DNA from: a virus
Lineage: Duplodnaviria > Caudoviricetes
Length of the DNA: 64,000 nt
Strand: one strand, 5' to 3'
IMG/VR virus record: IMGVR_UViG_3300028887_000078
Positions within the stretch are counted from its first letter, which is position 1. Every line of letters starts with the position of its first letter. Shown here piece by piece: positions 3,606-54,243 of the stretch. The notes below the pieces were generated by a model that did not search any database, was not told where the DNA came from, and saw only the letters and a list, made by a program, of their open reading frames with translations. Both the position numbers and the translations under genes were made by a program.

Positions 3606-3890
3606 ATGGTACATATAAGAATGATTGACGAGATGTTCACACAGCACGGAATATGGTTTGGTTTTATAGACATAATATAGGTGTGGGACGCACCGAATCA
3701 AAGCGTGTGGAGATGCGAGAAAAGATTATGAACGCTATAAAGCATTCAAAACAAACAGCAACGTTGAATCACGAAGCCGACACACTTTAGAGTGGCGGTA
3801 GTTCATATCGGTCTCACTTTCAGCAAGGACGGAAAATGTAAAGTGACCAACTACCTGATATTTGACGGCGGTGACATCACGGTTCTTTGA
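3606..3890 (+). pseudogene. remnant of a second ART paralog disrupted by an IS200/IS605 element and a deletion
   Basis: 5' part MVHIRMIDEM (3606-3635); 3' part 3807-3890 IGLTFSKDGKCKVTNYLIFDGGDITVL* matches the C-terminus of 3026..3601 (VGIKF..KFTNYVIFDEKDIEII). Confidence 0.7.
3630..3806 (+). mobile_element. IS200/IS605 right-end relic (tnpB 3' end / omegaRNA scaffold region)
   Basis: Encodes DVHTARNMVWF..GVGRTE, like a TnpB C-terminus; ends with gaagccgacacactttagagtggcggtagttcat, a typical IS605 right end. Confidence 0.7.
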
Positions 3891-9028: not shown

Positions 9029-12000
9029 ATGGATGACAATACCATCAAATTACTTTATGAGCAATATTTTGCGAGCGGTTCCGCGCTTACATTTGCCGAA
9101 TGGGTTGCTGAATGGGAACGCAAGCACGAACACGAAAGCGTTCACGTTGTCATCGACAATGCCGATGAAGTCGGTGTTTGTGATGGTGAGAACCCACACG
9201 GGGACAAAGAGTGCTGTCATCCAAAACAGGAATGTTGTCCGCCGCAACATCATTATACACCGAGAGGAAAAACAGGTATACAGGGTGTTCAAGGCATACA
9301 AGGTCCTGCTGGAATAGGGCAGGGCGGTTTGGGTTACACCGATATTGAAACGTTGCAGGGTTCTACAAATTATATAGATACCGACCATACGATTTATATA
9401 GGAGACACCGACACAGTAAAAGTGTGGGTTTCCTCACAGGGAATCATATATCTTGACGCAGTCGGTGGAGGTGGAAGTGGTTTGCAAGGAGTTCAGGGTA
9501 TTCGTGGTTTACAAGGCAGTCAGGGTGTTCAAGGTATACAAGGGTTTATCGGTATACAAGGTTTTGGTGGTCAGAATGGATTGCAGGGAGTTCAAGGACT
9601 TCAGGGTGTCGCAGGTCGGAGTGGTCTGCAAGGTCTGACAGGCGAACAGGGTCTGCAAGGCATCGCAGGTCAAAACGGTCTGCAAGGTCTGACAGGCGAA
9701 CAGGGTCTGCAAGGTTTGACAGGTTTGCAGGGTGAACAAGGTTTGCAGGGTGAACAAGGTTTGGCAGGTGAACAAGGTTTGCAGGGTGTTCAAGGTCTGC
9801 AAGGTTTGGCAGGTGAACAAGGTCTGCAAGGTTTGACAGGCGAACAAGGTCTGCAAGGTTTGGCAGGTGAACAAGGTCTGCAAGGTTTGACAGGCGAACA
9901 AGGTCTGCAAGGTTTGACAGGCGAACAAGGTCTGCAAGGTTTGGCAGGTGAACAAGGTCTGCAAGGTCTGACAGGCGAACAAGGTCTGCAAGGTTTGGCA
10001 GGTGAACAAGGTCTGCAAGGCATCGCAGGTCAGAGTGGTTTGCAAGGTCTGACAGGTGAACAAGGTTTACAAGGCATCGCAGGTCAGAGTGGTTTGCAAG
10101 GTCTGACAGGCGAACAAGGTCTGCAAGGCGTCGCGGGTGAACAAGGAACTCAAGGCATTCAAGGTATTACTGGTGAGCAAGGTGTACAGGGTACTCAAGG
10201 TTTGCAAGGTGTTCAAGGAAGTCAGGGAGAACAAGGAGTTCAAGGCACACAGGGAATACAAGGTATGCAAGGGTTGCAAGGTGTGCAAGGCACCATCGGT
10301 GAGCAAGGAGTGCAGGGTGTTCAAGGTATTCAAGGAGTTCAAGGCACACAAGGTGAACAAGGAGTTCGGGGACTTCAAGGTTTGCAGGGAACACAAGGTG
10401 AACAGGGTATTCAAGGTTCACAAGGCATTCAAGGACTGCAAGGAACCATCGGTATTCAGGGTGTTCAGGGAACACAAGGTGTTCAAGGGGTACAGGGTAC
10501 ACAAGGTGAACAGGGCATACAAGGACTTCAAGGTACCATTGGTGAACAGGGTGTTCAAGGAACACAAGGTTTGCAAGGAACACAGGGTACACAAGGTTTG
10601 CAGGGAGTTCAAGGTGAACAAGGAGTTCAAGGTCTGCAAGGAACACAAGGCACACAGGGTATTCAAGGCGCCGATGGTTTGCAAGGACTTCAAGGATTAC
10701 AGGGTATTGTCGGATTGCAAGGAGAACAAGGCATAACAGGTGAACAGGGTACGCAAGGTATTCAAGGAATTGAAGGTTTACAGGGTGTACAAGGTATCAC
10801 GGGTATGCAAGGTATTCAAGGTGAGAATGGCGTACAAGGAGTTCAAGGAACTATCGGTGAACAAGGTACACAAGGTATTCAAGGAATTGACGGTTTACAA
10901 GGACTTCAAGGTGAACAAGGTATTACAGGTTTACAAGGAACACAAGGCGTACAAGGTACGCAAGGTATTCAAGGCAATCAAGGTACACAAGGTATTGGAG
11001 GTTTGCAAGGAGTTCAGGGTGAACAAGGAGTACAAGGCATTCAAGGAACCGAGGGATTGCAGGGCATACAAGGTCTGCAAGGTTTGATTGGTGAGCAAGG
11101 TGTGCAGGGATTACAAGGAAATCAAGGAACACAAGGAGAGCAGGGAACACAAGGGTTGCAAGGCATACAAGGTGTTCAGGGACTTCAAGGATTACAAGGA
11201 AATCAAGGAACACAAGGTGTGCAGGGCATTCAAGGACTTGAAGGTTTACAGGGTGTTCGGGGAGTACAGGGTACACAAGGCACGCAAGGCGTTCAAGGCG
11301 AACAAGGAGTTCAAGGTATCACAGGTTTACAGGGCGTTCAAGGCATTCAAGGAACACAGGGAGTTCAAGGCGAACAAGGTGTGCAGGGTGAACAAGGAGT
11401 TCAGGGGACACAAGGTGAGCAGGGATTGCAAGGAGTTCAAGGAACCGATGGTATGCAAGGAGTTCAAGGTATTCAAGGTTTGCAAGGAATCGTCGGTTTG
11501 CAAGGTGAACAAGGTATCACGGGTGAACAAGGTGTTCAAGGTTTGCAAGGCATAACGGGTTTGCAAGGCATACAAGGTGTTCAAGGAACTATTGGTGAAC
11601 AAGGCGTTCAAGGATTGCAAGGTAATCAGGGAACACAAGGCACGCAAGGTCTTCAAGGTTTGCAGGGTATTCAAGGATTTGAAGGTCTGCAAGGGTTACA
11701 AGGAGAACAGGGTGAACAAGGTGTGCAGGGTGAACAAGGTGTGCAGGGCATTCAAGGCGAACAAGGTACGCAAGGAGTTCAAGGACTGCAAGGCGTTCAA
11801 GGTTTGCAAGGAGTTCAAGGTGAACAAGGAGTTCAAGGTGAACAAGGAGTTCAAGGCATACAAGGACTTCAAGGTAATCAAGGTGTGCAGGGAGAACAAG
11901 GCATTCAAGGTTTAAGAGGTTTGCAAGGAGTTCAAGGATTGCGAGGACTTCAAGGTTTACAAGGAGAACAAGGCACACAGGGTATTCAAGGGGTGCAAGG

Positions 12001-15000
12001 AGAACAAGGTGTTCAAGGTGAACAGGGCATACAGGGTGTGCAAGGTTTACAAGGAACTCGTGGATTACAAGGATTGCAAGGTGAACAAGGAGTTCAAGGC
12101 ACACAGGGTGTTCAGGGTGTTCAGGGAACACAAGGCATTCAAGGTTTGCAAGGTGTGCAGGGTACACAAGGCGTGCAAGGCGAACAAGGCACACAAGGTA
12201 TTCAAGGAGTACAAGGTGAACAAGGCACACAAGGTATTCAGGGTGTTCAGGGAACACAAGGCATTCAAGGATTACAGGGTATTCAAGGTGTGCAAGGCAC
12301 GCAGGGAGTTCAAGGTACACAAGGTTTACAAGGTTTACAAGGAGTTCAAGGCACGCAAGGTGTTCAAGGACTTCAGGGAATACAAGGAACCATCGGTGAA
12401 CAAGGAGTTCAAGGAACAACAGGTTTACAGGGCGTTCAAGGAGTTCAAGGAACACAAGGCACAAAAGGTTTACAAGGTATTCAGGGTACACAAGGAACAC
12501 AAGGTCTGCAAGGTGTTCAAGGAACGCAAGGCGCTCAAGGTCTGCAAGGCACAAAAGGATTACAAGGAGTTCAAGGTACGCAGGGCATACAAGGATTGCA
12601 AGGTGTTCAAGGCAGTCAGGGTACGCAGGGATTGCAAGGTGTTCAGGGAACACGAGGTATACAAGGTTTGCAGGGTGTGCAGGGCAGTCAAGGAACGCAA
12701 GGCGTTCAAGGTCATCGCGGACTTCAAGGTGTTCAAGGCACTCAAGGAAGTCAAGGCGCGCAGGGAATACAAGGTTTGCAGGGTGTTCAAGGCACGCAAG
12801 GTACTCAAGGTTTACAGGGTGTTCAAGGTACGCAGGGTACGAAGGGTCTGCAAGGTGTGCAAGGCAGTCGGGGAACACAAGGCATACAAGGTCTGCAAGG
12901 CGTTCAAGGCACACAAGGTTTGCAAGGAGTTCAAGGCGTTCGGGGCAGTCAAGGCACGCAAGGTTTGCAGGGCGTCCAAGGTCATCGCGGACTGCAAGGT
13001 GTTCAAGGTACGCAGGGTATACAAGGATTGCAGGGCGTGCAAGGCACACAAGGAACACAAGGATTGCAAGGTACGCAAGGCACTCAAGGAACACAAGGTC
13101 TGACTGGTTTGCAAGGTGTTCAGGGAACGCAAGGCACGCAGGGAACCAAAGGTTTACAAGGATTGCAAGGCGTTCAAGGCAGTCAGGGAACAAAAGGGAC
13201 GCAAGGTATTCAAGGTTTGCAAGGAGTTCAAGGCACTCAAGGAACACAAGGTCTGACTGGTTTGCAAGGTGTTCAGGGAACGCAAGGCACGCAGGGAACC
13301 AAAGGTTTACAAGGATTGCAAGGCATTCAAGGCGGTCAGGGAATCAAAGGTATGCAAGGTGTTCAGGGAAGTCAAGGCACGAAGGGATTGCAAGGCATTC
13401 AAGGCGGTCAGGGAATCAAAGGTATGCAAGGTGTTCAGGGAAGTCAAGGCACGCAGGGCACTCAAGGACTTCAAGGTGTGCAAGGCAGTCAAGGCAGTCA
13501 AGGAACACAAGGCACACAAGGAACCAAAGGTCTGCAAGGCATTCAAGGCAGTCAGGGAATCAAAGGTATGCAAGGTGTTCAGGGAAGTCAAGGCACGCAG
13601 GGCACTCAAGGACTTCAAGGTGTGCAAGGCACACAAGGAACCAAAGGACTTCAAGGTGTTCAGGGAACGCAGGGTACGCAAGGAACGCAAGGATTGCAGG
13701 GAGTTCAAGGTACACAAGGTACGCAGGGTGTTCAAGGCACGCAGGGAACGCAAGGTTTGCAAGGCGTTCAAGGTGTTCAAGGCACGCAGGGCAGTCAAGG
13801 AACACAAGGATTGCAGGGAATCAAAGGTCTGCAAGGCAGTCAAGGCACTCAAGGTCTGCAAGGTGTTCAGGGCAGTCAAGGCACTCAAGGCACAAAAGGT
13901 TTACAAGGTGTTCAGGGCAGTCAGGGTACACAAGGCACAAAAGGTTTGCAAGGTGTTCAGGGCAGTCAAGGTACACAGGGAACGCAGGGTGTTCAAGGCG
14001 TTCAGGGCAGTCAGGGGACGCAAGGCACGAATGGATTACAAGGTGTTCAAGGAAGTCAAGGTACACAGGGAACGCAGGGTGTTCAAGGCGTTCAGGGCAG
14101 TCAGGGGACGCAAGGCACGAATGGATTACAAGGTGTTCAAGGAAGTCAAGGTACGCAGGGTACTCAAGGATTACAGGGAGTTCAAGGCACTCAAGGTTTG
14201 CAAGGTGTTCAAGGAACGCAAGGAACCAAAGGACTTCAAGGCGTTCAAGGAACACAAGGAGCGAAAGGTCTGCAAGGTGTTCAAGGCACTCAAGGTATAA
14301 AAGGTTTGCAAGGCGTTCAGGGCAGTCAAGGCACGCAGGGATTGCAGGGTGTTCAAGGTGTGCAAGGTACGCAAGGCACCAAAGGTCTGCAAGGTGTTCA
14401 AGGCAGTCAAGGAACACAGGGAACTAAAGGTTTACAAGGTGTTCAGGGCAGTCAGGGAACGCAGGGTACTAAAGGATTGCAAGGTGTTCAAGGTAGTCAG
14501 GGTAGTCAAGGTCTGCAAGGTTTACAAGGTGTTCGGGGAACACAGGGAACACAGGGATTGCAAGGTGTTCAGGGTCTGCAAGGCACTCAAGGTCATCGCG
14601 GAACGCAAGGTGTTCAGGGAAGTCAAGGCGAGCAGGGATTGCAAGGCGTTCAAGGCATACAGGGAACTAAAGGTTTGCAGGGCATTCAGGGCAGTCAAGG
14701 AACACAAGGTACACAAGGCACAAAAGGATTGCAAGGTGTTCAGGGCAGTCAGGGAACGCAAGGTACACAAGGAACCAAAGGATTGCAAGGTGTTCAAGGC
14801 ACACAAGGTATGCAAGGTTTGACAGGTCTGCAAGGTGTTCAGGGTATAATCGGTCTGCAAGGTGTATCTGGCGAAAACGGACTTCAAGGTTTGCAGGGTA
14901 TCACAGGTTTGCAGGGAACCATCGGTGAAAACGGATTGCAGGGAATACAAGGTTCCGCAGGTCTGCAAGGTGTATCTGGCGAAAACGGACTTCAAGGCAT

Positions 15001-18000
15001 ACAAGGCATAGTCGGTCTGCAAGGAGTTCAAGGAGTTCAAGGAATACTCGGTTGTCAAGGCACAAGAGGTTTCCAAGGCATTCAGGGTATTCAGGGACTG
15101 CAAGGCATTCAGGGTATTCAGGGACTGCAAGGCATTCAGGGTATTCAAGGTATTCAGGGTGCTGGTTCTGAATTGATGACACTCATCACCTATGATGAGT
15201 TGGCAACTCTCGTGAACAGTTCCCAACTTGTGAAAGGTATGCAGTATCGCATAATAGACTATGAAACATTGATAGATGAATACTTGGTCTATGATTTGAG
15301 TACCGATTATTATGTCGGAGACGTTAATAGTCATCCAATGAATGATACAAACGATATTGTCACATTCAAGGAATATGACCTCGGACACCACGACTATGAC
15401 ATAATTGTGTTCGCGGACGATGAATCGACGCTCAATGAAAATGCGAGGGCGGTACAAAGGGGTGAAAATATGCTTGAAATATATTATGGCGGTAACTTGT
15501 ATCATATAAGACCTGGTGAAGTTCATATAGACGAAACAGGAACCTATGTCAATCTTGAAGTTCAAGACCCTGACACAGGTGAAACCACAACAATCCGCAT
15601 ACCTATAACAATCACGATTTCTATGATTTGGTATGTTGCCCCTGACAGCACCGCATATCCGTTGTATCAGAATGAGAACGGGGAATGGTATTATATCACA
15701 AACAGCGGTGACAAGAAAACTGTGGAACTCCCAAGCGGGGCAAAGGGGAAGGAAATTGGTGAAGGCGAAGGTGAATCTTCAGGTGTGGCTACTGAAGCGC
15801 AAGTGTTGTATAATGAAAAATTATACACCGTGTATAAATCGGACAAGGGTGAATTGTATTGGATAAATGTAGAAAAGGACGTTGTGTACCTCAACATCAG
15901 GTTCGACATTTCACCTGTGAACAAGTGGTGGTATAATGACAACGACACATATCCTGTCGGACTCTATCCTACATACAAAGATGACAAAGGGTATTATTCC
16001 ATCGCTTTTGATGTAAAGTCCGCAAAGTTTGTCAGAATCGACGTCAAGTATTTTAGTCCGCAAAGTGTATATGACATATATTATGACGGAAAGGTTTATG
16101 TGTTCAAAGACGAGGACATTAAAACGGGAGATGGAAAGCGTTTTGTAATGATAAATGAAGATAAATTTTTCCTAACCGATGATTCGTCACCGCTTTGGTA
16201 TGTTGATGAAAACTACAGAGTGTATCCTATTTTTTCTGATGGAAAAGATTTTGTCTATGTCGCCTCTGACGGGGTATCATATTCTGTGAAAGATTATATC
16301 GGAAAATTGTCAGAACTTGTTGAAACACCGCACGCACTGTATGATGGTGAGTGGTACGAGATACGCACAAAGGACAACTCGTATCTTATAGACACGAAAA
16401 ACAGCGGTGCCATTTATTTGGACTTCAACTTTGATATGTGCCACAGTCATAGATGGTTTTATATTAAAGAAGGTGGTGATTATAATATTGGTGCGTATTG
16501 TGTATATTTGGTTGATGGCAAATACATCATATACCCATTCCTTAAGAAAGAACTCGTTTATAAAAACGTTGACGTCACATCTTATTATAAAAATTCGGAA
16601 TACTATGATTTGGAAAATAAAAATGTGCATTACGAATTTGAATATGAAGATGTGGTCAAGGACGGTGACGGAACTCACGTCAGCATATCACTCAAAAAAG
16701 GAAGTTCGTCTGACGTTTATCTCACGCCTTACATTTCCGAAACTTGGTATGCAGATGAAAATCTGAAAATGTACCCTGTGTATTGGGATGAAGACGAGGA
16801 GTCGTATTATTACATATCGGACGACGGTTCCGTTGAATATGTTTTGTGGGAACTCAACGGCAGCGGTTTGGATGACGCTTTTGCTGTATTGTATGACGGA
16901 AACACATATTATGTTTCCACCACAACAGGATTCGATGAAGGCGCGATGTGGTACATAATGGTTGACGGAGAAAAACAATATCTTGATTTTGACTTTGGAA
17001 TCTCACCGACACATTATTGGCATTTTGACGATGCGACACACACTTACCCTGTTTATAGTTATGATGTCAATGGTGAATTGGGTTACTATTATATCGGCAC
17101 AGACGGAACTGTGGTTGACGTCACCGAAAACTATGTCAATGATAAATCACAAAGGGGTTTGACAAAAGGTGGATTGAATGCGGAAATGATGGAGGATAAC
17201 GCCATCCTGAAAACTTTAACAGGTTCCGCTTCCGCCCGCGATGCAAACGACGACTATTTTGACGGAGCGAACCTCCGCGCTTGGTGGTTGAAGTACACAT
17301 TGTTCAACGACAAGTCGACCTACAGTTGGGCAAGGGTTCCGACTGTCAATATGGGAAAGAAAGTTCCGATATTGTATGAGAATGGAAGCGAGAGGTATTA
17401 TGTGTATACAGGACAGAAATATATAGACGGCGCAAAGACATATCACATTTGGACATTCGGACAAACCGACTATTACATAGTGTATAGTTATGATGATATT
17501 GTAAATAACAGTCCTGTCCTGATTGACGTGCTTGATACGTCGTTCAATGTAGTGTACAGTTTCAAATCCTACAAGGTATGGTCAGGAGCACTTCATTTCT
17601 ACTTCGACGGGACATATAACGACACAACTACAAACACTTGGAACAACGGTCTCGGAACGCATTTCAAAATCGTGAATTACAAGACCGCTATGACGGCATC
17701 CACATCAATCCTAACCATAGAAGGAACCACCGTCGTGACGTTCGAGTGGGTAGAGGATATATATACAGACTTCGGAAAGGGTGTTGTGTTCCGTATGGAG
17801 GATGAACACGCCAATGTTATGCCTTATGATTTCAAGAACATTATGTTCGCGAGAATCGGTATGCGAGGCGCGGTCACTGCATTGCCGAATGGTAATTCAA
17901 GGTATATTGTTGTTGATGGTGGTGACTATCCTTATAACGTTTTTGATGTTATGTCGTATGACGAAAACCAAGGGAGTTGGTCATCGAACAACGGGTATTT

Positions 18001-19177
18001 GAATGGGGAAACAACACCGGGGATGGTTGATGATAGCGGAAAAGCCACAATACAGCACAGGTTCTGTGATGTGTCTTCTTTGTATAAGTTCGGATTTGGT
18101 GTCAGTGTGGGTGCAGTGGGCAACATTCACGAGTATGGTGTGCTTTATTCGGCATTCAAACATTACTTTGTCAAATCTTTCCACTACAGATACACATTCG
18201 ACTGTTCCAGAAGTGTGCTCGATGTGTGGACACCGATTGACACTTCGTTGTATCGCATTGCATATTGCAACACCTGCGACCTCCCGCACAACGCGTTCAG
18301 TGTATTGAACTCAAACTCATATTTCTGCTATAAGGCAAAACATATACTTCCAAATAATGTGTTTTATGGATTGTGTTTGGTGACAAACAATAAAATAACT
18401 GGCAATTCGTTGTGGAACACGTTCTTTGTTGCAAGCACTAAAAAAGGTATGAAGAGCAGCATACAAAACAACATTGTCAATGAAACGCACATAACATACA
18501 TATACAGTCCGTTTGATTCTGAAATCAGGAACTCTATATGCTGCGGTATTGTTAATAATGAAGGCACAGGCAACGCCGCTTCTATGAATGTAAAAATCGA
18601 CGGTTCGCATTCAGTTTTTGCAATAGCGGACACATTCAACACAACAATGATGTCAAATGTGGTTTATAAAAATTGTAGAAATGTGTACACAAATGAAGTC
18701 AACAATTCTGTCTTTGATAATGTTTATTTGGTATTCGGACAAACAATAGCAGATACAAATATAAGGAATGTTGAAGAATCTGTCATAAGTGCCATATATG
18801 GAAGTAAAACCAAAGGTTATACAAGGAAGAGTGATATAACCGATTGCAGTTACATACAGGCGGTATCGTTTTATGACACTGATTTGCGGGATTGCAGCAA
18901 TATATATTTTGGTAAATTCGAGGGACTCTTCATTGTTAGAAACCTTGAAATGAACAATGGTGAGATGGTTCTGTTCAACCTCATCAACGGGAACACTTCA
19001 TATACAAAAGCAATACGCAATGTAAGGGTTATGAGCGGTATCAACAACCTAATCGGAGCACTTCCCCCGTTGCTTATACCCGCGGACACTATGGACAATC
19101 AAACGTATGTCACAATCGTTACGAGAAACTCGCAGAGGATTGTGAAGATTTACAACGACGGCGACCAAATACCGTAG
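9029..19177 (+). CDS. giant collagen-like fibre / receptor-binding protein (3382 aa)
   Basis: About 630 Gly-X-Y triplets, then [41 protein letters not shown] (Bacteroidota phage fibre-type domain) and an Asn-rich, beta-helix-like end; late promoter at 8996. Confidence 0.85.
9479..15160 (+). repeat. 9-nt periodic coding repeat (mostly Gly-X-Gln collagen triplets), about 5.7 kb
   Basis: Continuous CA(A/G)GGNNNN units with nested 18-, 27- and longer duplications. Confidence 0.95.
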
Positions 19178-19190: not shown

Positions 19191-19211
19191 TGATATATCA
19201 ATGATATATCA
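19191..19211. promoter_or_regulatory. TGATATATCA-N-TGATATATCA double palindrome (representative of six intergenic copies)
   Basis: Copies at 1211, 19191, 24704, 26616, 37085, 54165. Confidence 0.8.
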
Positions 19212-24656: not shown

Positions 24657-24785
24657 TGCAATTCCGTTTCGTTTAATATAACAAAAAGTGATTGTTTTTT
24701 TAGCGATATATCAATGATATATCAAAGTTTTTCGGAATTTGCATTATATTCAAGAAAAGCATTGTGCAGATAACAACGAAACATT

Positions 24786-33056: not shown

Positions 33057-34529
33057 CCTTGAAAATCTAATAAAATCTACGAAAAACTTGTAAAAACTAA
33101 CTGATATAAATATATTATAGTTTCAGACTATTTATAAATATAATGAACGGAAGTAGCAAGACGTTCAAATTATTCAAAAGAAGATATATAGGGATAACTC
33201 CATCTCGGTTCTTGCTACGTTTTATTTACCGAGCGGATGCGTCCCTTTTTTATTGACTATGTTGCGAGGAATCAAGGTAAGGTTATATCCCAACAAGGAA
33301 CAGCAGGCAAGACTGAATCAAGTTCTTGGTTGCTATAGATTTGTGTATAACAAGACACTTGAACTCAAACGCAATGTCTATGACGAGGACAAGACCAACC
33401 TCAAACTAACCGACATTTCAAAGTGGTTTCACGGAACGCTGTTAAAAGATGAAAACTATGCTTGGTTGCAGGAACAGAACACAAAGGTGATGAAACAGTC
33501 AATCCGTCAGATGCTTGACGCTTATTCAAACTTCTTCAAACAGCACAAGGGATTCCCGAAGTTCAAGTCAAAGAAGGACAACCAATCGGCATTGTTTCCA
33601 TACGAGGCGATTTCCAAACGCAACACATTCAACGAAAGAAAAATAACTCTCACTAAAGACCTGAAGAACATCCGTTTCAGATGTTCCGACTTGTATTTCA
33701 AGAGACTTCAAGACTACAAAGATTGTATAAGGAGTGCAACCGTTTCGAGAACCAAGAGCGGCAACTACTTCCTTTCAATCCTTGTTGACATCCCGAAGGA
33801 AGAACTTATCAAGTTCAAGCATACCAAGCAGTGTGTCGGAATAGACCTCGGAGTCAAGGATTTTGTAATCACAAGTGACGGCGAGGTCTTTGAAAACAAA
33901 CACTTTTTCAAAAAGCAAGAAAAGAAAGTCAAGCGATTGCAGAAGCAACTGTCAAAGAAAGTAAAAGGTTCACACAACCGAGAGAAACAGCGTGTCAGAA
34001 TTGCAAAGGCGTTTGAACGACTTACCAACCAAAAGGATGCTTATATTCATTCGGTTGTGAATGCTTTGTTGTCTTTGTACGACTTGGTTTGTATAGAGGA
34101 TTTGAATGTGCAGGGAATGGTGAAAAACCACAAATTAGCAAAAGCAATTCAAGAGGTCGGTTTCTACAAGTTCAAGCAGATTTTGCTTGACAAAGCAAGT
34201 GTCAACGGCAAGCAGGTTGTCTTGGTTGACCGTTTCTATCCGAGCAGCAAGACCTGCCACAAGTGCGGATATGTGAAGAAAGATTTGACTTTGAGTGACC
34301 GTGAATGGGTCTGCCCTATTTGCGGTGAGCATCTTGAAAGGGACATAAATGCTGCAATCAACATATTGATTGAAGGATTAAGAATAATAGGTGTCCGTAG
34401 CACCGAATTTACGCTTGCGGAGAACCCAACCGTGGATGACCGTCTGGCAACAGACCTAAAAAGCGGTGGTTCGTTGAAACAAGAAAGAAGGACTAATAAT
34501 TCCAATTTTTATTAAATTTTTCTATACGG
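33057..34529 (+). mobile_element. tnpB-only IS200/IS605/IS607-type element (ends approximate)
   Basis: Intact tnpB with no tnpA; AT-rich ends ccttgaaaatctaataaaat.. and ..atttttattaaatttttctatacgg are imperfectly inverted. Confidence 0.6.
33259..34515 (+). CDS. tnpB: TnpB RNA-guided endonuclease
   Basis: HTH KVRLYPNKEQ; RuvC GIDLG, IEDL, RDINAAINI; Zn ribbon CHKCG..CPICG. Confidence 0.95.
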   Translation: MLRGIKVRLYPNKEQQARLNQVLGCYRFVYNKTLELKRNVYDEDKTNLKLTDISKWFHGTLLKDENYAWLQEQNTKVMKQSIRQMLDAYSNFFKQHKGFPKFKSKKDNQSALFPYEAISKRNTFNERKITLTKDLKNIRFRCSDLYFKRLQDYKDCIRSATVSRTKSGNYFLSILVDIPKEELIKFKHTKQCVGIDLGVKDFVITSDGEVFENKHFFKKQEKKVKRLQKQLSKKVKGSHNREKQRVRIAKAFERLTNQKDAYIHSVVNALLSLYDLVCIEDLNVQGMVKNHKLAKAIQEVGFYKFKQILLDKASVNGKQVVLVDRFYPSSKTCHKCGYVKKDLTLSDREWVCPICGEHLERDINAAINILIEGLRIIGVRSTEFTLAENPTVDDRLATDLKSGGSLKQERRTNNSNFY

Positions 34530-37052: not shown

Positions 37053-37119
37053 ATTGGATAAATTTATTCAATATATTTATATGAATATATCATTGATATA
37101 TCGCTTTGCTATAAATAAT

Positions 37120-38403
37120 CGGAATTATCCCTTTAGTCTTGTAAAATGTGAGTAATATAAATATAGTATAGTATTTCAATCAGATGGAGAGGACGTACAC
37201 ATATAAGTTCAGGTTATATCCGAACAAAGAACAAGAGATTTATCTCGTCAATGTGTTTGGATGTTGCAGGCTTGTATATAACCATTTCCTCAATGAAAAG
37301 AAAACCCAATACAATGAATCCAAAACAAGTGATTCGTACAATGTTCAATCAGGTAAATTAACTGAACTTCGTAAAACGAATGAATTTGAGTTCTTGAATG
37401 CTGTTCCTTTGCAGGTATTACAATGCAGTTTGAGGAATATGCACAATGCTTATGACAACTTCTACAAACACAAAAGTTCCTATCCGAAGTTCAAGAACAG
37501 AAGGAACAAACAGTCGTTTAAGTTACCACAAGAACAGTGTTTTAGAATAAAAGATAACAAACTTTACATTCCTAAACTAAAAAGCGGAATTGACATTGTA
37601 ATGGAACGTAAGATTATAGGCAAAATATGCTTTGCCACAATCTCAAAGAATAAGGCGGGCAAATACCACATAGCAATTACTGTTAAACAGGATTACATAC
37701 CTTATGGAAAGACCAACCGTTCTGTCGGTCTTGACCTCGGCATAAAGGATTTCGTCATCACAAGTGACGGGGTTAAATACAAGAACCATAGAAGTATAAT
37801 AAGGACATTAAAACGTAAACTAAAACATAACCAAAGACATCTGTCAAGGAAAGTTTATGGTAGCAAGCGATACGAAAACCAAGTGTTGAAATGCAACCGA
37901 ATCTATCAGAAGATAACAGATGCCAAAACTGACTACATTCATAAGATAACCACAGAACTTGTCAGACACTACGATGTGATAAAGGTTGAAGACCTAAACA
38001 TTAAAGGGATGATGAAGAACCACAAGTTGGCAGAGGCAATATCAGAATGTAATTGGTATCAGTTCATTCAAACTCTTGAATATAAGTGTTTGTGGAATGA
38101 AAAAGAACTTATAAAGATTGACCGTTTCTATCCGTCAAGTCAGATGTGCAGTGAATGTGGTTATGTTGAAAAAAAAGTCAGAAACCTAAATGTGAGGGAA
38201 TGGACTTGCTGTAACTGCGGTTGTCATCACGACCGTGATGTAAATGCAGCAAGAAACATTTTGAAATATAATTCGGCAAGGAATGTCGAAAACAGTCGTG
38301 GAGTTGTATGCAAACTGAATGAAAGAACCAAATCAGTTGGTGATTGTTCGGACAACTGTGAAGCGATTATTGAACTTTTACAAGACTAAAAGGGATAATT
38401 CCG
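37120..38403 (+). mobile_element. non-autonomous TIR cassette carrying tnpB
   Basis: TIRs 37120-37144 and 38378-38403 (differ by one T indel); flanking direct repeats taaataat (37112-37119) and taaataaa (38404-38411); same TIR as 1253..2005. Confidence 0.85.
37184..38389 (+). CDS. tnpB: TnpB RNA-guided endonuclease
   Basis: YKFRLYPNKEQ, GLDLG, VEDL, CSECG..CCNCG, DRDVNAARNI; stop codon lies inside the right TIR. Confidence 0.95.
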   Translation: MERTYTYKFRLYPNKEQEIYLVNVFGCCRLVYNHFLNEKKTQYNESKTSDSYNVQSGKLTELRKTNEFEFLNAVPLQVLQCSLRNMHNAYDNFYKHKSSYPKFKNRRNKQSFKLPQEQCFRIKDNKLYIPKLKSGIDIVMERKIIGKICFATISKNKAGKYHIAITVKQDYIPYGKTNRSVGLDLGIKDFVITSDGVKYKNHRSIIRTLKRKLKHNQRHLSRKVYGSKRYENQVLKCNRIYQKITDAKTDYIHKITTELVRHYDVIKVEDLNIKGMMKNHKLAEAISECNWYQFIQTLEYKCLWNEKELIKIDRFYPSSQMCSECGYVEKKVRNLNVREWTCCNCGCHHDRDVNAARNILKYNSARNVENSRGVVCKLNERTKSVGDCSDNCEAIIELLQD

Positions 38404-38429
38404 TAAATAAATATAGCAAAGATTTGATT

Positions 38430-40010
38430 ATGCAACCGACGAAACCTACAGAGAACGGGGTCAAGTACCTTCAATTAACGGACAGCATATTGATGGAATA
38501 TGTGTATGTCTGTGACAGATATGTGTCCAACAGCGGAACGGATTTGGACGGAGACACGCTTGCCGTCGATGAAAACGGCGACTTTATGAACACCTATGGA
38601 CACAGTCCTGTTTCCACATACCGAATCGCAAAGAACGAGTATGTGGACGAATTGTACTTTATGAACGATGAGTTGTCATCGGCACTTACAAACAACAGTA
38701 TGCGGAACACAGTCCTGCCTGTGAGGAAAGACCAAACCAAATGGGTCGCCACCAACAGGGTGAACGGGAAGTATTATTCCAAATACGACACGAAATGGGC
38801 GGACATAGACCCAATTTCAGGTGAAATGAGCATCAACAGGATACCTACCGCGCCGTACGGCGAGTATGTCCCGTATGACATAGTGAGATTCTATTTCCAA
38901 AGTGGGTACCATTCCGAATACGACGGGTTCATATTCAACTTGTACACGAGAAACAGGAACAACGAGTATGTTAACCTTCTCTGTGCTATGCACGAGAACT
39001 ATGGGAACTTCAGGATGCTGTCCGAACCGTTTTGGTTTGCCGACAAACTTTATACAAACTACATAGAGTACAGGGTTCCTTCCACTGCATATCTGTCGTC
39101 CGACGCAATCGGTGGCAACACGCCTTCTATGGAAATGAACAGATGGGGCGGAAGCGGAAATTACGACAAGACGAACCCCGACCCTGAAACACTGCCGTAT
39201 TTTCTTACACACAGCATAGGGTTCTACAACAACCCTGCAATAGGAATTGACCTGCACGCGGTCACAGGTTATGAGATGGACAGGGGGTTCAGGGTTTACA
39301 AGTCTCTTATGCTGACCTCGACGCTGTTTCCCAACAAGGACTCCTATGAAAGACTGATGGCGGTTGCAAGACCCGCGTCCGACGGGGACTACTACAAACT
39401 CTATGCCTATTATGAGAACGACCTGTCGAATCCTATTTACGATGAAATGTCCCTTTATGAATATCTGAAACAATACAGGAACACCTTCACGGTCGTGCAT
39501 ATCATAACTGTCAGCGAAACCTACACGGATGACGCTAACAACACCGTGACCGACACCCAGCCGCCTATGACGTACATACAGTCTTGGGAAAACCTTGAGA
39601 GTATGTACGAGGCGAATGAATCGCCTGAAATCCTTTTCCGACCTGTCCTGAAACACACTTCAAGGATGCTCTCCGACGGGGACGGTGCAAGGATAAGGTA
39701 TGTGGTGCGAATAACCAACGACAGGGACAACACCACGATTATCAAGAACACATCCTGTTCAATCATAAGACCAAGAAGGTTCGGTTTGAATATGGTTAAC
39801 GCAAACATAAACTCTATGAATGATGTGCGGGTTTACAACCGTGTGGAAAGCGGTCCAGTCCTGAACGTGACCACAGTCACCCGCCCGCTCGGTTCTGTTT
39901 CGTCGGAACAGGCGCCTGTGCAGGTGAACACCTATGTGACATCTTCGTTCATAGACAGGAGAAACATAAAAATACGGGTGTCCCCCGTTAGAATAGAGGA
40001 GGTTGAATAA
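38430..40010 (+). CDS. putative virion structural protein
   Basis: Start reassigned to ATG 38430; Tyr/Asn-rich; late-promoter context. Confidence 0.55.
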   Translation: MQPTKPTENGVKYLQLTDSILMEYVYVCDRYVSNSGTDLDGDTLAVDENGDFMNTYGHSPVSTYRIAKNEYVDELYFMNDELSSALTNNSMRNTVLPVRKDQTKWVATNRVNGKYYSKYDTKWADIDPISGEMSINRIPTAPYGEYVPYDIVRFYFQSGYHSEYDGFIFNLYTRNRNNEYVNLLCAMHENYGNFRMLSEPFWFADKLYTNYIEYRVPSTAYLSSDAIGGNTPSMEMNRWGGSGNYDKTNPDPETLPYFLTHSIGFYNNPAIGIDLHAVTGYEMDRGFRVYKSLMLTSTLFPNKDSYERLMAVARPASDGDYYKLYAYYENDLSNPIYDEMSLYEYLKQYRNTFTVVHIITVSETYTDDANNTVTDTQPPMTYIQSWENLESMYEANESPEILFRPVLKHTSRMLSDGDGARIRYVVRITNDRDNTTIIKNTSCSIIRPRRFGLNMVNANINSMNDVRVYNRVESGPVLNVTTVTRPLGSVSSEQAPVQVNTYVTSSFIDRRNIKIRVSPVRIEEVE

Positions 40011-48191: not shown

Positions 48192-51100
48192 TTATGATTT
48201 TAATTTGAGATTTCTTATTGCTTCAGCAAACTCATTCACCGCTTTTTGGAACGCATTGGCGTCGAGTTCCGCTTTCACAGTTTGTGGTCTTTGCGGTTGC
48301 GGTGTAGGAGTCGGTGTGTTCTGTTTTCCAAATAGACCTGTTTTACCGCTTCCGTTTCCGCCTGTTTTACCGCTTCCGTTTCCGCCTGTTCCACCGCTTC
48401 CTCCGCCATTTCCGTTGCTGTTGATGGTTTCAACGATTTCCTCTATGGTTTTCTTTATGTCTTCAAGTGCCTTCGTTGTCTTTGCATTGTCAGCGCTCAC
48501 GAGTTCCCCGAACCCAGCAATCATATCCGCATAGGGTTTCATTATGTCGTTGTTGATGCTGTTGATTGCGTTTGCTATCTTCTGCGTGTTGGAACTGATG
48601 TTGTCGAACACCTTTTCCTTGACTGCGTTCCTCAACGAATCCACGAACTTCTGCGACTTGTCGATATTGTTTCCTGCGCCTGCGAGTTTGTTCATACCTG
48701 TCACGAGTTGGTTCGTGAAGTCGGTGAAGTTCCTGCCGTTGGCGCTTTTTATGTTTGCCGCGGTGTCCGACATATTCTTCACTTTCGTAAGTACCGATGC
48801 GTATTTGTCGGCGATTCCCTTTGACTTGTCGAGGTCGCTTGTCTTGAATGATTTCAGTGTGTATTCAATAGGTTTACTTTTGCTGTAGAAGGTGTACTTG
48901 GTGTCATTTTCCCTTTCAACGAATGTCGTCGCCATTGTCATAATGTTGACTACGGGCTCGAACACGTTCGTCGGGTTTTTTGCAATGTAGTTGAGCGATG
49001 ACTGCTCGGCTGCGAGAGACTTGACGGATTCGCTCACCCCCTTCGCCGCTTTTTTGACGCCTTCCATAACCTTGTCCCATTGCGGTTCGTCGCTGTTTGG
49101 CCAATAAAGCAAACGTCGCAACTGTCCCACTTTTCCGAACTTCGCGGTTGCTTCAGGATAACCGAGTTCTGCTGGTATGAGGTCGAATGATTTTTGCGTA
49201 CCGTCGCTTGTCACGGATGCACCTATCTGTGCGAATGCCGTGAGGGACAACGCTATGGACTGCACGAGTTTCGCGGTGACGTCTATGATTTTGTCGGGTT
49301 TCGCTATTTTGCCCAATGCCTCGAACCCTTCCGCGATGCCTGAAATGATGTCGCCTATTCCCGTCGCCGCGTCGACCGCCATACCGAAATAGGTCTTGCT
49401 CGGCGTTTTCTTCGTCGAGGAACTCGTCGACACACCCGCTCCCCAAAGTTTGACTTCCGCCTTTGACTCGGACTTGGTTTCAATGTCGTACAGCACGCCG
49501 CCGTTCTTTAGCGATTCGCCGAGTTGCCAAAATACAGAGATTGCGCCGCAGGTGAGCATCTGCATATTCCTGACCATTCCGCTTCCGCCGTCCACACCCC
49601 AATCCTTGTTGATTTTGCCTGGTTCCCCTATGTTCTCGATTATTTTCTTGTCGGAAAGCGCCTTCACAATCGCCGCCATACCCTCCATCATCTTGCCGAT
49701 GTTGCCCACGCTTTCAAGCGCTCTCGCCACATCTGTCTTGTGGGTGTTGTAGTTTACGGTTTGTTCAGACGCTTCGTGGACTGCGACCATACCTGCGCCG
49801 ATTTTGCTCGCCCGTGTTTTCGCCTGACCGAGTTTTACATCTATGGACTCGTCGACCGTTCCGAATTTTATAAGCGGTTCCTGTATGCCCGTCAGCAATG
49901 TCGCGACGCCGTTGGCGACGTCGGTAATCCAAGTGTTGTCCTTTGAGTTCACCAAATCCTTGAACTCCTTCATACCGCTCGCTATGTCCTTCAGTGCGTT
50001 GCCGATTCCCTTCACGCTCTTTATTCCCTCCTGAACCGCGTTTTTGCCGCCGACGAAGAATTTGAACAGGTCGCTGTATTTTCTCCCAGATTCCGTTTCA
50101 AGTTTTTCAATCTCCTTGCCCAGCCAAGCGTCGCCAATCATCTTGAACGCGCTTGACACGGAAGTGACGGTTTCCACGACGGCATCCGTGAACTCCTTCA
50201 TATAGGTCGTGCTCTTGAACTTCGTCCCGTAGGTGTCGTAGAACTCCGTAAGACCTTTTGCGATTTCCTTCAGGGCGGTTCCCATTTTCCTCGCTTCAAC
50301 AGCGCCTTTCGCCGCGTCGCTCGGAGTGTATGCCGCCATCGTTCTTCCAAACCATCCTTTCTCAACATCTTCCTTGCCCTTGTTGTTTCCGCCGAGTATG
50401 GAGAATATGTCCCTGACAGCGATGAGGACGGTCGATATTTCGGTTATTTTCGTTATGTCTATGTCGCTGTTCGTCCATTCCTGCATACCTTTCGCGAGGC
50501 GCTTGATTGTTATGCCCGCGGTGGTCATAGCGGACGCGGTCACCTGCATCTGCGCCAAGTTGAACGGGGCGAACATAGACGACGTCATTTTTCCCGCGAA
50601 GCGTTTCAGGAACCCTTTGGTTTCGGTTTCGTCTCCTTTCGGTGTGCCTTGGAAGGCAAGTTTTATCCTGTCTATGGAAAGGCAGAGTATGTCGAGTTTC
50701 TTTTCGTCGATGTTCACGCCGTTCCAATTCTGCAACGCGCGTCCAAGAGACGACAGCGCTCCGCTTATTATCGCTATCGCGGTCGCGGAAGTCGTTATCG
50801 GCGCGAGCTCGAATGCCCCCGTGATTGCTCCGGAGATGGCGCTTCCTATCTTTTTGAAAAACCCCTTTACCCCGCCTCCGCTGTCATCGCCTTTCGGTTT
50901 GCCCATAAACGCGAGTTTCAGTCTGTCTATCGAGATGCAGATGAGGTCGAGTTGGTTTTTGTCGATGTTCGCTTTCGACCATTCTTGCAATGCGAGTCCG
51001 AGTCTTTTCAATGCTCCCGCTATCGTGAAGATTGCCACCGCTCCTATTCCTATTGGAATTGCAAGCGGTGCGAGCAGGGAGAACTCAAGTCCGAATATGC

Positions 51101-54100
51101 CGATTATCCCTGCCATCTTGCCGATGTCCTTCCAATTCATTTTCTGTATCGGTTCCACAAACTTTCCGACGCCATATCCGAACGGGATAAGCGCCGCGCC
51201 CATCACCGCAAATGCGACATCCGCCATCACGATTGCGGGGGCAAGCGGTCCGAGCAATGCGAACTCCGCCCCGAATATGCCAATCAACGCCGCCATCATT
51301 CCGACTTTTTTCCAAGAACCGACCTTGTCAATCTCGGTTGCGTATTTTCCGACGCCGAAACCGAATGAAATGAGTCCAACTCCCATTGCCGCGACCGCAG
51401 CGGAACCAAGTGCGACAAACATCGCCACGGCAGGTATACCGAGCAATGCGAACTCAACTCCGAAAATACCAATCAATGCCGCCATCATACCCACCTGTTT
51501 CCAACCGATGTCCTTTATGGCGTCCACATAGAACTTGACGCCGAACCCGAATATGCCGAGTCCGACCGCCATAGCAGCGATGACAACTGTTCCCTTCAGG
51601 ATGTCCATAGTAAATTTTCCTGCGATAACGAACTCAAGCACGAATATGCCGAGCAACACGGGCATCATAATCAGCGTCCCGGTCTTTACTCCGTCAATCG
51701 CCTTCGTGTAGAAACCGAGTCCAAAACCGAACAATCCGAGTGCAACCGCCATACCTGCGACCGCGCCTGAACCTTTCAGGATGTTCTTCGGATTGTCGCC
51801 TTTTCCCGCCTTGTTGAATATGAACAGAAGCGATGCGAGCAGCAGAGGCATTCCGATAAGTGATTTTGCACTTGCCCCCTCAACGGTCTTGAGCGGGGGT
51901 ATCAATGCGAAACCGAATATCGCGAGCGCAGCGGACATACCGACAACAGCGCCTGCACCTTTCAGTATCTTTTTCATATTGTCGTTCTCGCCGCCCTTCT
52001 TGAATATCCACATACTTCCGTACAGGAGTCCGAACACGGCGACGGTCTTTATCAGACCCATCCAGTCCATCTTCCCGTCCTTCGTCTTCCACATTGTGCC
52101 TACGATGGCGTTTGAAATCCACAATGCGGCGGAGAATATGACGAGTCCGAGCGACATAGCGGCAATCGCGCCGAAACCTGCGAACGCCTTTCTCACATTC
52201 TCCTGTGTCCCTATTCTCTTGTAAACCCAAAGGCTTCCGAGCATAAGTCCGAACACCGCCAAGTCCATAACCGCCGCTTTTACGTCGACACCGCTTTTCC
52301 AATTTCCGACGATATTCTTCATAATTTGGTGGGTAATCCACAGGGCGCCGGAAAATGCGACAAGTCCGAGTGACATAACCAATATGGACATACCCGCGCC
52401 CATAACCTTGCGCACGTTGTCTTCCTTTCCGATTCTTCTGAACAGGTAGTATGAACCGAGCATAAGTCCGAACACCGCGACGTCGCCGACTATCGCCCAC
52501 GGGTCTGCACCGCCTTTCCAATTCTGTACAATCTGTTTGGTCAGTATGTGCGTCACGAAGAGCGCAACGCTGAACGAAAGTATGGCGGCGCTCATAAGCA
52601 GCGTCGAAACAGCGCCCCTGCGCACCTTGTCGCTTGAACGTTTGTCTCCGAGTTTGCCGAAGAACTTGTACGAACCGTACATCAATGCGAACACCCCGAC
52701 CGAAGCGGCGATTGAGGCGATGTTAGTCCAATCTATCTTGTCGGTGCCGCCCGTGATGATGTATCTTGTTATCATCGTGGTGGCGAGTATCGTCAGGGTG
52801 AACGTGATTATGGAGGTGGAAATCAGGAGGATGTTGTACACCCCGCTTCTGATGTCAATGGAGTTTTTCTTGTTTCCGATGTTCTTGAACAGCATATTCG
52901 CCCCTTTCAGGACAATCGCGGTCAGTCCCATTCCCACAAGAGCGGGAACGGCGAGTATTGAGTTCAATGCCATAGCAGCGTTGAACCAAAGCATAGATTT
53001 TCCAATCAGTTCAAGGTTGAGCGCCGCGGTGACGTATTTTTTGGTAGCGGTCATTTTCGACAGCGGTTTCAATGCCCATCTCGCCTCCCTTATGACGAGG
53101 GCGGACAGAAGCATACCCACCATAGCGACGGGCGCGACTACGGCGACGAGCGCCATTCTCGCCGTGAACTTGAGAAGCGAGGTCGCTATCTTGTCGAGCG
53201 TCTGCACGGCAATCAATGTCTTTGCGATGTTCTTCGCATTTTCAAGCGGTTTTATCGCGTCGAGCGTCCCCTTGATTATCTTCTTCGCCGCTTTCGCTCC
53301 GAGTTTCGCGGGGAGTGCAAACATAGCGACACCTGCAAGCGATTCCGACAAGTCGAATATATCCCGCGATATTTTCTCCATCGACTTGACGCCAACCTCA
53401 TATTTTTTCATTTTGGCGGGCGTCATAGATTTTTCGTGCTTGTTCACCGTGTTGAAGAACGCGTCGAATATGCCGCCGATTTTCACTTGCAGCAACAGGG
53501 ACTTCGCAAGGGATATTTTGTCCATCTTGACGGCGGCGTCCGCCATCGCGCTCACTATCTCGCCGACGTTCTTTCCGCCTTTGACTTCAGGTATCTTGAC
53601 TTTCTTCGCCGCTTTCTCCTCTTTCGACTCGAAGAGTTTGCGCATAAGCGACCCTCCGCTTTCCTTGCCTTTGATTCCTTTCTTCGCGAGTTTTTTCGTG
53701 TTGGAAGCAATCTTTATCAGTTCGAGGTTTGATAGTTTTAGGGCGGAGCGTATTGAAGCGGTGACCTTTGTGAGATTGATGATGCTTGCACCGACATTCG
53801 AGAGTCCCGCACCTACGGAACCTCCAAGACCGACTGTCGAGGCGGTGGATTGGGACATACTGTCCTTTATCGTGTCCGACATCTTGTCAATCGACTTGTT
53901 GAGGTCTTTTACCGAATTGACCGTGGCGTCCTTCACCTCCGTGGTGGCGTTGCTGATTATGCTCGCGGCGTCGGACAACGACGAAGCGCAACCGATAATC
54001 GCGTTGTTTATTGAAACGAGATTTCCGTTGATTGCATTGCCTTGCGATTCCATACAGGTCTGTATGGACTGCATCGGTGTGAACAAATCTCCTATTGTCG

Positions 54101-54113
54101 CTGGTTTTCCCAA
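48192..54113 (-). CDS. tape-measure-like protein with multiple hydrophobic repeats
   Basis: 1973 aa, Ala/Gly/Lys-rich helical with repeated hydrophobic segments; late promoter at 54154; TTG start uncertain. Confidence 0.7.
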   Translation of the reverse strand: MGKPATIGDLFTPMQSIQTCMESQGNAINGNLVSINNAIIGCASSLSDAASIISNATTEVKDATVNSVKDLNKSIDKMSDTIKDSMSQSTASTVGLGGSVGAGLSNVGASIINLTKVTASIRSALKLSNLELIKIASNTKKLAKKGIKGKESGGSLMRKLFESKEEKAAKKVKIPEVKGGKNVGEIVSAMADAAVKMDKISLAKSLLLQVKIGGIFDAFFNTVNKHEKSMTPAKMKKYEVGVKSMEKISRDIFDLSESLAGVAMFALPAKLGAKAAKKIIKGTLDAIKPLENAKNIAKTLIAVQTLDKIATSLLKFTARMALVAVVAPVAMVGMLLSALVIREARWALKPLSKMTATKKYVTAALNLELIGKSMLWFNAAMALNSILAVPALVGMGLTAIVLKGANMLFKNIGNKKNSIDIRSGVYNILLISTSIITFTLTILATTMITRYIITGGTDKIDWTNIASIAASVGVFALMYGSYKFFGKLGDKRSSDKVRRGAVSTLLMSAAILSFSVALFVTHILTKQIVQNWKGGADPWAIVGDVAVFGLMLGSYYLFRRIGKEDNVRKVMGAGMSILVMSLGLVAFSGALWITHQIMKNIVGNWKSGVDVKAAVMDLAVFGLMLGSLWVYKRIGTQENVRKAFAGFGAIAAMSLGLVIFSAALWISNAIVGTMWKTKDGKMDWMGLIKTVAVFGLLYGSMWIFKKGGENDNMKKILKGAGAVVGMSAALAIFGFALIPPLKTVEGASAKSLIGMPLLLASLLFIFNKAGKGDNPKNILKGSGAVAGMAVALGLFGFGLGFYTKAIDGVKTGTLIMMPVLLGIFVLEFVIAGKFTMDILKGTVVIAAMAVGLGIFGFGVKFYVDAIKDIGWKQVGMMAALIGIFGVEFALLGIPAVAMFVALGSAAVAAMGVGLISFGFGVGKYATEIDKVGSWKKVGMMAALIGIFGAEFALLGPLAPAIVMADVAFAVMGAALIPFGYGVGKFVEPIQKMNWKDIGKMAGIIGIFGLEFSLLAPLAIPIGIGAVAIFTIAGALKRLGLALQEWSKANIDKNQLDLICISIDRLKLAFMGKPKGDDSGGGVKGFFKKIGSAISGAITGAFELAPITTSATAIAIISGALSSLGRALQNWNGVNIDEKKLDILCLSIDRIKLAFQGTPKGDETETKGFLKRFAGKMTSSMFAPFNLAQMQVTASAMTTAGITIKRLAKGMQEWTNSDIDITKITEISTVLIAVRDIFSILGGNNKGKEDVEKGWFGRTMAAYTPSDAAKGAVEARKMGTALKEIAKGLTEFYDTYGTKFKSTTYMKEFTDAVVETVTSVSSAFKMIGDAWLGKEIEKLETESGRKYSDLFKFFVGGKNAVQEGIKSVKGIGNALKDIASGMKEFKDLVNSKDNTWITDVANGVATLLTGIQEPLIKFGTVDESIDVKLGQAKTRASKIGAGMVAVHEASEQTVNYNTHKTDVARALESVGNIGKMMEGMAAIVKALSDKKIIENIGEPGKINKDWGVDGGSGMVRNMQMLTCGAISVFWQLGESLKNGGVLYDIETKSESKAEVKLWGAGVSTSSSTKKTPSKTYFGMAVDAATGIGDIISGIAEGFEALGKIAKPDKIIDVTAKLVQSIALSLTAFAQIGASVTSDGTQKSFDLIPAELGYPEATAKFGKVGQLRRLLYWPNSDEPQWDKVMEGVKKAAKGVSESVKSLAAEQSSLNYIAKNPTNVFEPVVNIMTMATTFVERENDTKYTFYSKSKPIEYTLKSFKTSDLDKSKGIADKYASVLTKVKNMSDTAANIKSANGRNFTDFTNQLVTGMNKLAGAGNNIDKSQKFVDSLRNAVKEKVFDNISSNTQKIANAINSINNDIMKPYADMIAGFGELVSADNAKTTKALEDIKKTIEEIVETINSNGNGGGSGGTGGNGSGKTGGNGSGKTGLFGKQNTPTPTPQPQRPQTVKAELDANAFQKAVNEFAEAIRNLKLKS

Positions 54114-54243
54114 AACTCAAAAAACGGACGTGCCGTGAGAATATTCTTCCTATTATTTATAACTTGATATATCAATGATATATTATGAAAAACAGACTTC
54201 GTATAAATAATGAACTAAACCAATTTTCAAATCTGTTACACAA

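Follow-up and report, generated by a model that had tools for sequence, protein, structure and literature searches.

The element at positions 37120-38403 of the window, by which we mean the whole 64-kb stretch of viral DNA that was analysed, is a non-autonomous member of an IS1595-family "transporter IS" lineage of rumen Bacteroidales and giant phages, and it carries a tnpB gene between terminal inverted repeats (TIRs) and the two copies of a target-site duplication (TSD). We consider it probable that this is an IS1595 element moved in trans with an OMEGA module as its passenger, that the omegaRNA of the module ends in the TIR, and that the element is a candidate for homing. In this IS1595/TnpB lineage the end of a DDE transposon and the scaffold of a guide RNA are predicted to occupy the same nucleotides, and the TnpB element appears to be a rare bacterial-virus counterpart of the eukaryotic Fanzor transposons, with a right end that would double as the last part of the guide RNA.

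TnpB and its IS1595-type ends

The tnpB gene (37184-38389, plus strand) encodes a 401 amino acid protein that is recognized both by Pfam, with the domains HTH_OrfB_IS605, OrfB_IS605, and Cas12f1-like TNB, and by its match to the ISDra2 TnpB structures 8bf8 and 8exa, with an E-value of 5.6e-74. The original prediction of an intact gene with three RuvC acidic residues was confirmed, the triad being D184, E270, and D352, and both CxxC pairs of the zinc finger are kept, at 322 and 342, which together with the domain set gives the protein the features of a TnpB/OMEGA nuclease. When the window gene is compared with 13 other copies (14 distinct intact ORFs, with dS saturated), dN/dS is 0.05-0.09, and the TnpB clade with these TIRs is under strong purifying selection. 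The E and second-D RuvC motifs are found in 14 of 14 copies, and two copies, L020 and L082, are without a match to the first-D pattern.

The 1284-bp unit described around tnpB was recovered at 37120-38403. Its ends are TIRs of the IS1595-family type, as predicted, though not of the 25 and 26 bp first given: the left TIR (37120-37146, plus strand) has 27 nt, one T short of the family consensus, and the right TIR (38376-38403, minus strand) has 28 nt, the two differing by one indel. The ends of the ISNha5 group read CGGnnTT in ISfinder. The stop codon of tnpB, TAA at 38387-38389, does lie inside the right TIR, and the 8-bp near-duplication reported at the element borders was found as TAAATAAT (37112-37119) and TAAATAAA (38404-38411), which match at 7/8 positions, whereas matches of at least 7/8 occur at 0.86% of control offsets. 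Neither tnpA nor any other transposase was found in the 64-kb window, in keeping with the claim that the element has no tnpA, and no Y1 gene is present among the window ORFs scanned. A further claim, that IS605-type ends are absent, holds for the extremities but not for the interior of the 3' end, which has its homologue in the omegaRNA/right-end region of canonical relatives. Assignment to the IS200/IS605 family (IS1341 group, solo tnpB) was rejected, TIRs and a TSD being present.

The same TIRs recur at other sites, which had been proposed as a check. When viral contigs were scanned for it, the TIR turned up at 12 loci; viral, metagenome, and genome loci together hold 40 unique TIR-bounded elements, found in Bacteroidales MAGs and in related rumen phages of 120-413 kb. 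A perfect 8/8 TSD stands at the boundary of 19/40 elements, as compared with 0.08% at control offsets, and the elements lie in AT-rich sequence biased towards YA|N8|TR. Autonomous copies of 2.4-4.2 kb have identical TIRs and encode an IS1595-family DDE transposase. One of these, in a 387-kb phage that also carries a TnpB copy (L018, 2862-6249), has a perfect TSD, ATTTTAAA, identical TIRs within inverted repeats that extend about 75 bp, passenger ORFs, and a 310 amino acid transposase that matches PF12762 (DDE_Tnp_IS1595) with E-values of 1.7e-34 and 4.6e-33; its score for PF12760 (Zn_ribbon_IS1595), at 24.6 bits, is just below the 25.4-bit cut-off. Transposases of rumen Bacteroidales MAGs, at 85-97% identity, are found in elements of 2.4-4.0 kb with the same TIRs and perfect 8-bp TSDs, and the TIR is identical over 25-28 nt in the transposase-bearing L018, L095, L099, and L100. 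The transposase that shares these TIRs, which was to be identified, is thus the IS1595-family DDE transposase of the L018 phage and the Bacteroidales MAGs, and since identical TIRs and TSDs bound elements with PF12762, the proposal that an IS1595-like DDE element captured TnpB stands.

None of the fetched loci has a transposase and tnpB within one TIR pair. With no transposase in the window or in any TnpB-bearing copy, the TnpB element is non-autonomous, and its mobilisation would be in trans. An 8-bp TSD is a trait of the IS1595 family (PMC8101967), within which passenger-carrying "transporter IS" are known (PMC11891212); the window copy has the shared TIRs and the 8-bp TSD (7/8), and lacks an internally encoded zinc-ribbon DDE transposase.

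A second element of the TIR family lies in the window at 1253-2005 (753 bp), with A8/A8 flanks. Its cargo is a 203 amino acid ORF (1331-1942, minus strand) that is not a TnpB, has no Pfam match, and is driven by a TIR-proximal TATAAATA. The cargo ORFs of many family members, which differ in length, all begin with M[TI]HIKRI[ND]EM and have a TIR-proximal TATAAATA.

Portal, baseplate wedge, and NrdD genes among the window ORFs identify the window as phage, and the window is related to 363-413 kb rumen viral contigs, with 45-56% identity at the flanking gene; a DNA search of a phage database gave no match. The promoter-like box TATAAATA occurs 19 times in the 64-kb window against 1.1 expected, and a 19-bp double palindrome, GATATATCATTGATATATC, has 9 sites against 0.01 expected, including 1212-1230, 19192-19210, 24705-24723, 37084-37102, and 54166-54184. 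One copy of this palindrome precedes the TnpB element by 17 nt on its left side, and the element at 1253 also has one to its left; as a genome-wide motif with 9 sites it was ruled out as part of the transposon. The window also contains two very long ORFs, of 3382 amino acids (9029-19177, plus strand) and 1973 amino acids (48192-54113, minus strand).

The predicted omegaRNA scaffold and its proposed guide boundary

The 3' 132 nt of the element (38272-38403, plus strand) form a covarying omegaRNA, which we take as the predicted scaffold. The fold obtained with RNAalifold, from 19 and then 22 sequences, begins with hairpin H1 (38272-38290), which has the loop GGAA at 38280-38283, and continues with nested long-range stems to a terminal hairpin, CUUUU/AAAAG, that is built from the TIR. 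Alignment cells are paired at 98.4%, compared with 26-50% in slid controls, and 0/500 shuffles reach the observed value. Compensatory pairs number 8/31 in alignment A2 (8/32 with the pseudoknot helix) and 14/32 in A3, the latter in an alignment with TnpB-less mini-elements included. In the last 50 codons of tnpB dS falls to 0.12-0.68, compared with 0.8-3.4 elsewhere, and dN/dS nears 1, a drop in dS that is the signature of an overlapping functional RNA, so that covariation and reduced tail dS together give the element the RNA structure of the TnpB/OMEGA class. Canonical relatives have recognisable counterparts of its blocks in their own omegaRNA regions; a search of Rfam gave no match.

The ISDra2 TnpB-omegaRNA complex of the IS200/IS605 family (PMC10097598) is a useful comparator, because it has the same domain set and catalytic residues, although the element described here is without a Y1 TnpA and without asymmetric hairpin ends and has TIRs and TSDs instead. 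In ISDra2 nucleotides -5U to -3C pair with the stem-1 loop region to form a pseudoknot, -1 being the position that precedes the guide (PMC10097598), and UUC is found at -5 to -3 in ISDra2, in the canonical relatives, and in the TIR clade alike. The canonical relatives have the end GTTCAT| and the H1 loop GGAAC, and the TIR clade has the end ATTCCG| and the H1 loop AGGAA. As in ISDra2, a terminal hairpin is predicted before the UUC strand, and UUC at -5 to -3, ahead of the guide, is able to pair with the first hairpin's loop. The proposed partner of the H1 loop is the strand UUCC at 38399-38402, giving a GGAA/UUCC helix of 4 bp (38280-38283 with 38399-38402) that is 98.7% paired in the alignment. 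Two observations count against this pseudoknot, namely that it shows only single changes compatible with G-U pairing and no double compensation, and that it is mismatched in 2/22 sequences.

The stretch between ATTGAACT and the TIR core differs among copies by 2-21 nt, and in every linker variant one hairpin closed by CUU/AAG is kept or extended, the insertions either pairing with TIR bases (AGUCU/AGACU vs AAUUU/AGAUU) or enlarging the loop. From the UUC register and these hairpin-preserving indels we infer that the scaffold spans 38272-38403 and that the guide starts at 38404; by this boundary register a guide segment would lie at 38404-38423 (plus strand), made up of the right duplication copy and the adjoining flank. 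The suggestion that the TIR may form the 3' boundary of the omegaRNA therefore has the support of covariation, of the hairpin-preserving indels, and of a pseudoknot strand placed as in ISDra2. The scaffold lacks two distal hairpins that the canonical relatives have, and in their absence the RNA could be impaired; at its 3' side it is about 30 nt shorter than theirs.

Three TnpB-less mini-elements of 322-329 bp (L007:6894-7220, L081:8989-9310, and L093:6179-6507) retain the entire scaffold together with the TIRs and a TATAAATA box, and are without tnpB. A complete 413-kb phage (G002) has four omegaRNA matches and no cognate TnpB, only a 42%-identical one, which counts against the preferred explanation. 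The target-adjacent motif (TAM) of ISDra2 is TTGAT (PMC10097598). For the TIR clade the flanks of the TnpB copies yield no consistent TAM, which also counts against it: TA stands 5' of the TSD in all TnpB copies with a clean TSD, and also in 11/19 perfect-TSD elements with any cargo, and L138 has TT at this place instead of TA. The TA is thus part of the general YA|N8|TR preference of the transposase and is not specific to TnpB.

Insertion site, candidate homing, and alternatives

The left flank of the element (37104-37119, plus strand) is composed of an outer palindrome arm, CTTTGCTATA at 37104-37113, a promoter-like TATAAATA at 37110-37117, and the left duplication copy, and the 10-nt arm is perfectly complementary to the outer right arm at 38412-38421. 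In the reconstructed empty site TATAAATA is 21 nt before the ATG of the downstream phage gene 38430 (38430-40010, plus strand), and in the orthologues of this gene in related phages the box is 30-45 nt upstream of the ATG. The insertion has split the box, so that the right copy now reads CGTAAATA, and gene 38430 probably relies on read-through for its expression. The element has a promoter-like box of its own, as the original prediction stated, with TATAAATA at 37156-37163 (plus strand), 21 nt 5' of the tnpB ATG, and this position is conserved in other element copies. The label "late" for the putative TATAAATA promoter comes only from identity with the T4 late consensus. Outward-facing TATAAATA boxes are also seen in the terminal-hairpin loop of L024, L080, L084, and L085 and of the three mini-elements, and such boxes in right ends could give the gene beyond the insertion a promoter again. 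No empty allele came up, which counts against the preferred explanation, either when viral contigs were scanned with the protein of the flanking gene or with exact patterns of the empty site at the window and L002 positions. The gene 38430 orthologues in G001, G002, and G005 have different upstream neighbours.

In the mechanism that we propose, an IS1595 transposase supplied in trans would move the element by cut-and-paste or copy-and-paste into AT-rich YA|N8|TR sites, and a phage-type TATAAATA promoter would drive tnpB, the last ~132 nt of the transcript folding as the omegaRNA. By structural homology with ISDra2, the last hairpin (stem 4) would come from the inner right TIR and the UUCC of the outer TIR would pair with the loop of the first hairpin as a pseudoknot; with the TIR supplying both, the scaffold would end exactly at the TIR tip. 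Read-through RNA would then carry the TSD and the right flank as a guide of 16-20 nt, and every fresh insertion by the DDE transposase would automatically direct TnpB at the site newly occupied. In the empty allele the guide target is contiguous with the left flank, which would allow it to be cut and repaired from the occupied copy, while the occupied allele would match the guide over only 8 nt. The putative use would be the cutting by TnpB of the unoccupied allele of a co-infecting phage, after which recombinational repair may copy the element in, or the competitor may simply be damaged. Such homing into empty alleles is plausible, and the model, which is that of the original prediction, fits the view of DDE-linked TnpB and Fanzor given in the main texts of PMC10691335 and PMC13565253. 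A more far-reaching possibility, about which we are tentative and somewhat short of evenly persuaded, is that the IS1595 TIR has been co-opted as a repeat-like 3' module of the omegaRNA that re-arms TnpB with each insertion, giving a phage-borne, prokaryotic equivalent of the Fanzor/TIR transposons, with homing between co-infecting giant phages and with mini-elements that hitch-hike on the nuclease in trans.

One important consideration is where the scaffold ends. If it ended at ATTGAAC, the variable linker and the TIR would form a fixed guide with a job other than homing, directed at sibling TIRs or acting in regulation or as a weapon. The stretch that varies most in length is indeed the linker after ATTGAACT, the scaffold is about 30 nt shorter at its 3' side than in canonical relatives, and omegaRNA copies persist in a genome without cognate TnpB, all of which would suit a fixed guide. 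We nevertheless regard it as unlikely, given that a single CUU/AAG-closed hairpin persists in all linker variants, with insertions that pair with the TIR, that the position of UUC agrees with ISDra2 when counted from the TIR tip and not from ATTGAAC, and that a guide directed at the TIR would cut every family member in its own genome, itself included. The element could also be a passive or decaying passenger, TnpB having been captured once and carried since by a DDE transposon without a working guide RNA. In the window copy the left TIR has a 1-nt deletion and the TSD one mismatch, which would be consistent with decay, as would the loss of the left TIR in several relatives (L021/L077 and L094), but those copies keep a perfect right end, and the 14 distinct intact ORFs with dN/dS of 0.05-0.09 at saturated dS, the catalytic triad kept in the window copy with the E and second-D motifs in 14/14, and compensatory RNA changes that extend to the ORF-less mini-elements make decay quite improbable.

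T4-type phages shuffle genes by means of promoter/stem-loop cassettes, and the inverted repeats could in principle be regulatory or recombination borders of such T4-type-like cassettes, with the 8-mer match arising by chance in AT-rich DNA. Phage-type TATAAATA promoters do adjoin a TIR, and diverse cargo ORFs have their first ten codons in common, as cassettes might. This reading has already been refuted by the TSD statistics, with 19/40 perfect 8-bp duplications against 0.08% at control offsets, and by transposase linkage, the same ends flanking an IS1595-family transposase in phage and bacterial contigs, and we give it almost no credence. The preferred reading, of an IS1595 element whose TIR ends the omegaRNA, must also accommodate the 1316-1327-bp subgroup, which is mostly without clean TSDs and counts against it. 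Flank swapping among three copies in a 192-kb contig, compared manually, does not explain the TSD-less copies.

Known DDE-linked systems and the spread of the clade

Prokaryotic TnpBs nearly always accompany "scarless" Y1 or serine transposases; pairing with cut-and-paste DDE elements is considered rare, and the hallmark of the eukaryotic Fanzors. The original prediction, which took prokaryotic TnpBs usually to travel with Y1 or serine transposases that lack TIRs, overlooked DDE-transposase-associated prokaryotic TnpBs that are described in the main texts of Altae-Tran et al. 2023 (PMC10691335) and a review (PMC13565253), so that DDE-linked prokaryotic TnpBs with inverted repeats and trans-mobilised solo copies are already published. 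The families named there are IS630 and the IS5-type ISL2 and IS1031, and IS1595 and phages are not named among the DDE-TnpB pairings in the main texts of these two sources. The published systems are similar to the one described here in having a prokaryotic or viral TnpB inside symmetric inverted repeats, a TnpB 3' end close to the transposon end, and solo copies that share ends with transposase-bearing ones, implying mobilisation in trans. In contrast, the hosts here are giant phages of rumen Bacteroidales, the TIR maps onto specific elements of the predicted omegaRNA, and omegaRNA-only mini-elements accompany the TnpB copies.

Fanzor1 and Fanzor2 (PMC3627910, PMC13565253) are likewise TnpB-type nucleases carried as passengers of cut-and-paste DDE transposons with TIRs and TSDs, and in both cases the guide RNA would run to the transposon end. 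The protein in the phage is, in contrast, a compact 401 amino acid, bacterial-type TnpB, closest to that of ISDra2, and the elongation of Fanzors relative to prokaryotic TnpBs (PMC13565253) is absent; identity as a Fanzor was rejected on the phage genome, the Bacteroidales MAG relatives of the transposase, and the protein being nearest to bacterial TnpB. Merlin is the eukaryotic relative of IS1595 (PMC8101967), and the original Fanzor survey makes no mention of it (PMC3627910). Among bacterial elements, the IS1595 transporter IS such as ISNha5 (Siguier et al. 2009, as cited in PMC11891212 and PMC8101967) share 8-bp TSDs, TIRs, and passenger genes inside the ends with the window element, and share a transposase with an N-terminal zinc ribbon and DDE_Tnp_IS1595 with its autonomous relatives. 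They differ from the window copy in that it has lost the transposase and its passenger is an RNA-guided nuclease whose RNA is predicted to use the TIR.

The autonomous transposon, the cargo cassettes, TnpB with omegaRNA, and the omegaRNA-only mini-elements form a natural multi-copy series, which lets one ask how an OMEGA module becomes adapted when it acquires a new transposase partner, how a TAM squares with a non-specific 8-bp TSD, and whether RNA-guided homing works between co-infecting phages. The predicted nuclease, compact at 401 amino acids and with a scaffold of roughly 130 nt, is available for characterisation.

A junction-specific metagenome scan returned 25 loci, among which at least 20 right flanks are distinct, and a search by protein added about 90 clusters, 64-90% identical and in many cases on 130-405 kb contigs. 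Within the TnpB clade that goes with these TIRs, identity ranges over 57-90%: the TIRs are kept at 65-66% TnpB identity in L137 and L138, the latter with a perfect TSD, AAACTTAT, and L139, at 57%, has a co-diverged TIR subtype. Relatives at or below 55% (L140 and L025-L064) are without TIRs and have canonical GTTCAT or GGTTCAC ends. The concern that this might be a one-off capture, with all homologues having IS605/IS607 ends, is answered by the retention of TIRs down to 57% identity. The outer 14-16 nt of the L139 TIR (AAAGTGGATGATTCCG, 3690-3717) resemble the right-end tip of L140 (ATAGTGGTGGTTCAC, 3697-3712) at about 11/14 positions, which is either chance or a clue to the route of capture.

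A second tnpB in the window (33253-34515) encodes 420 amino acids that are 40% identical to the product of the tnpB at 37184-38389, and it has a tail typical of omegaRNA overlap. Its 3' end (...AATAATTCCA) and an upstream motif at 33198-33210 (AGGGATAACTCCA) resemble the TIR tip in direct orientation. From the sequence, this gene seems to have canonical IS605/IS1341-type ends, and the likeness of these ends to the TIR tip may have eased capture by an IS1595 transposase. Among the copies elsewhere that have lost the left TIR, the one at L094:617-1845 has a perfect right TIR and is followed directly, outside the copy, by a TATAAATA box and an MTHIKRIDEM-type gene. Finally, at L073:3400-3600 (minus strand) the omegaRNA tail and right TIR form a tandem partial duplication directly after a complete TnpB element, leaving two right ends 88 bp apart.
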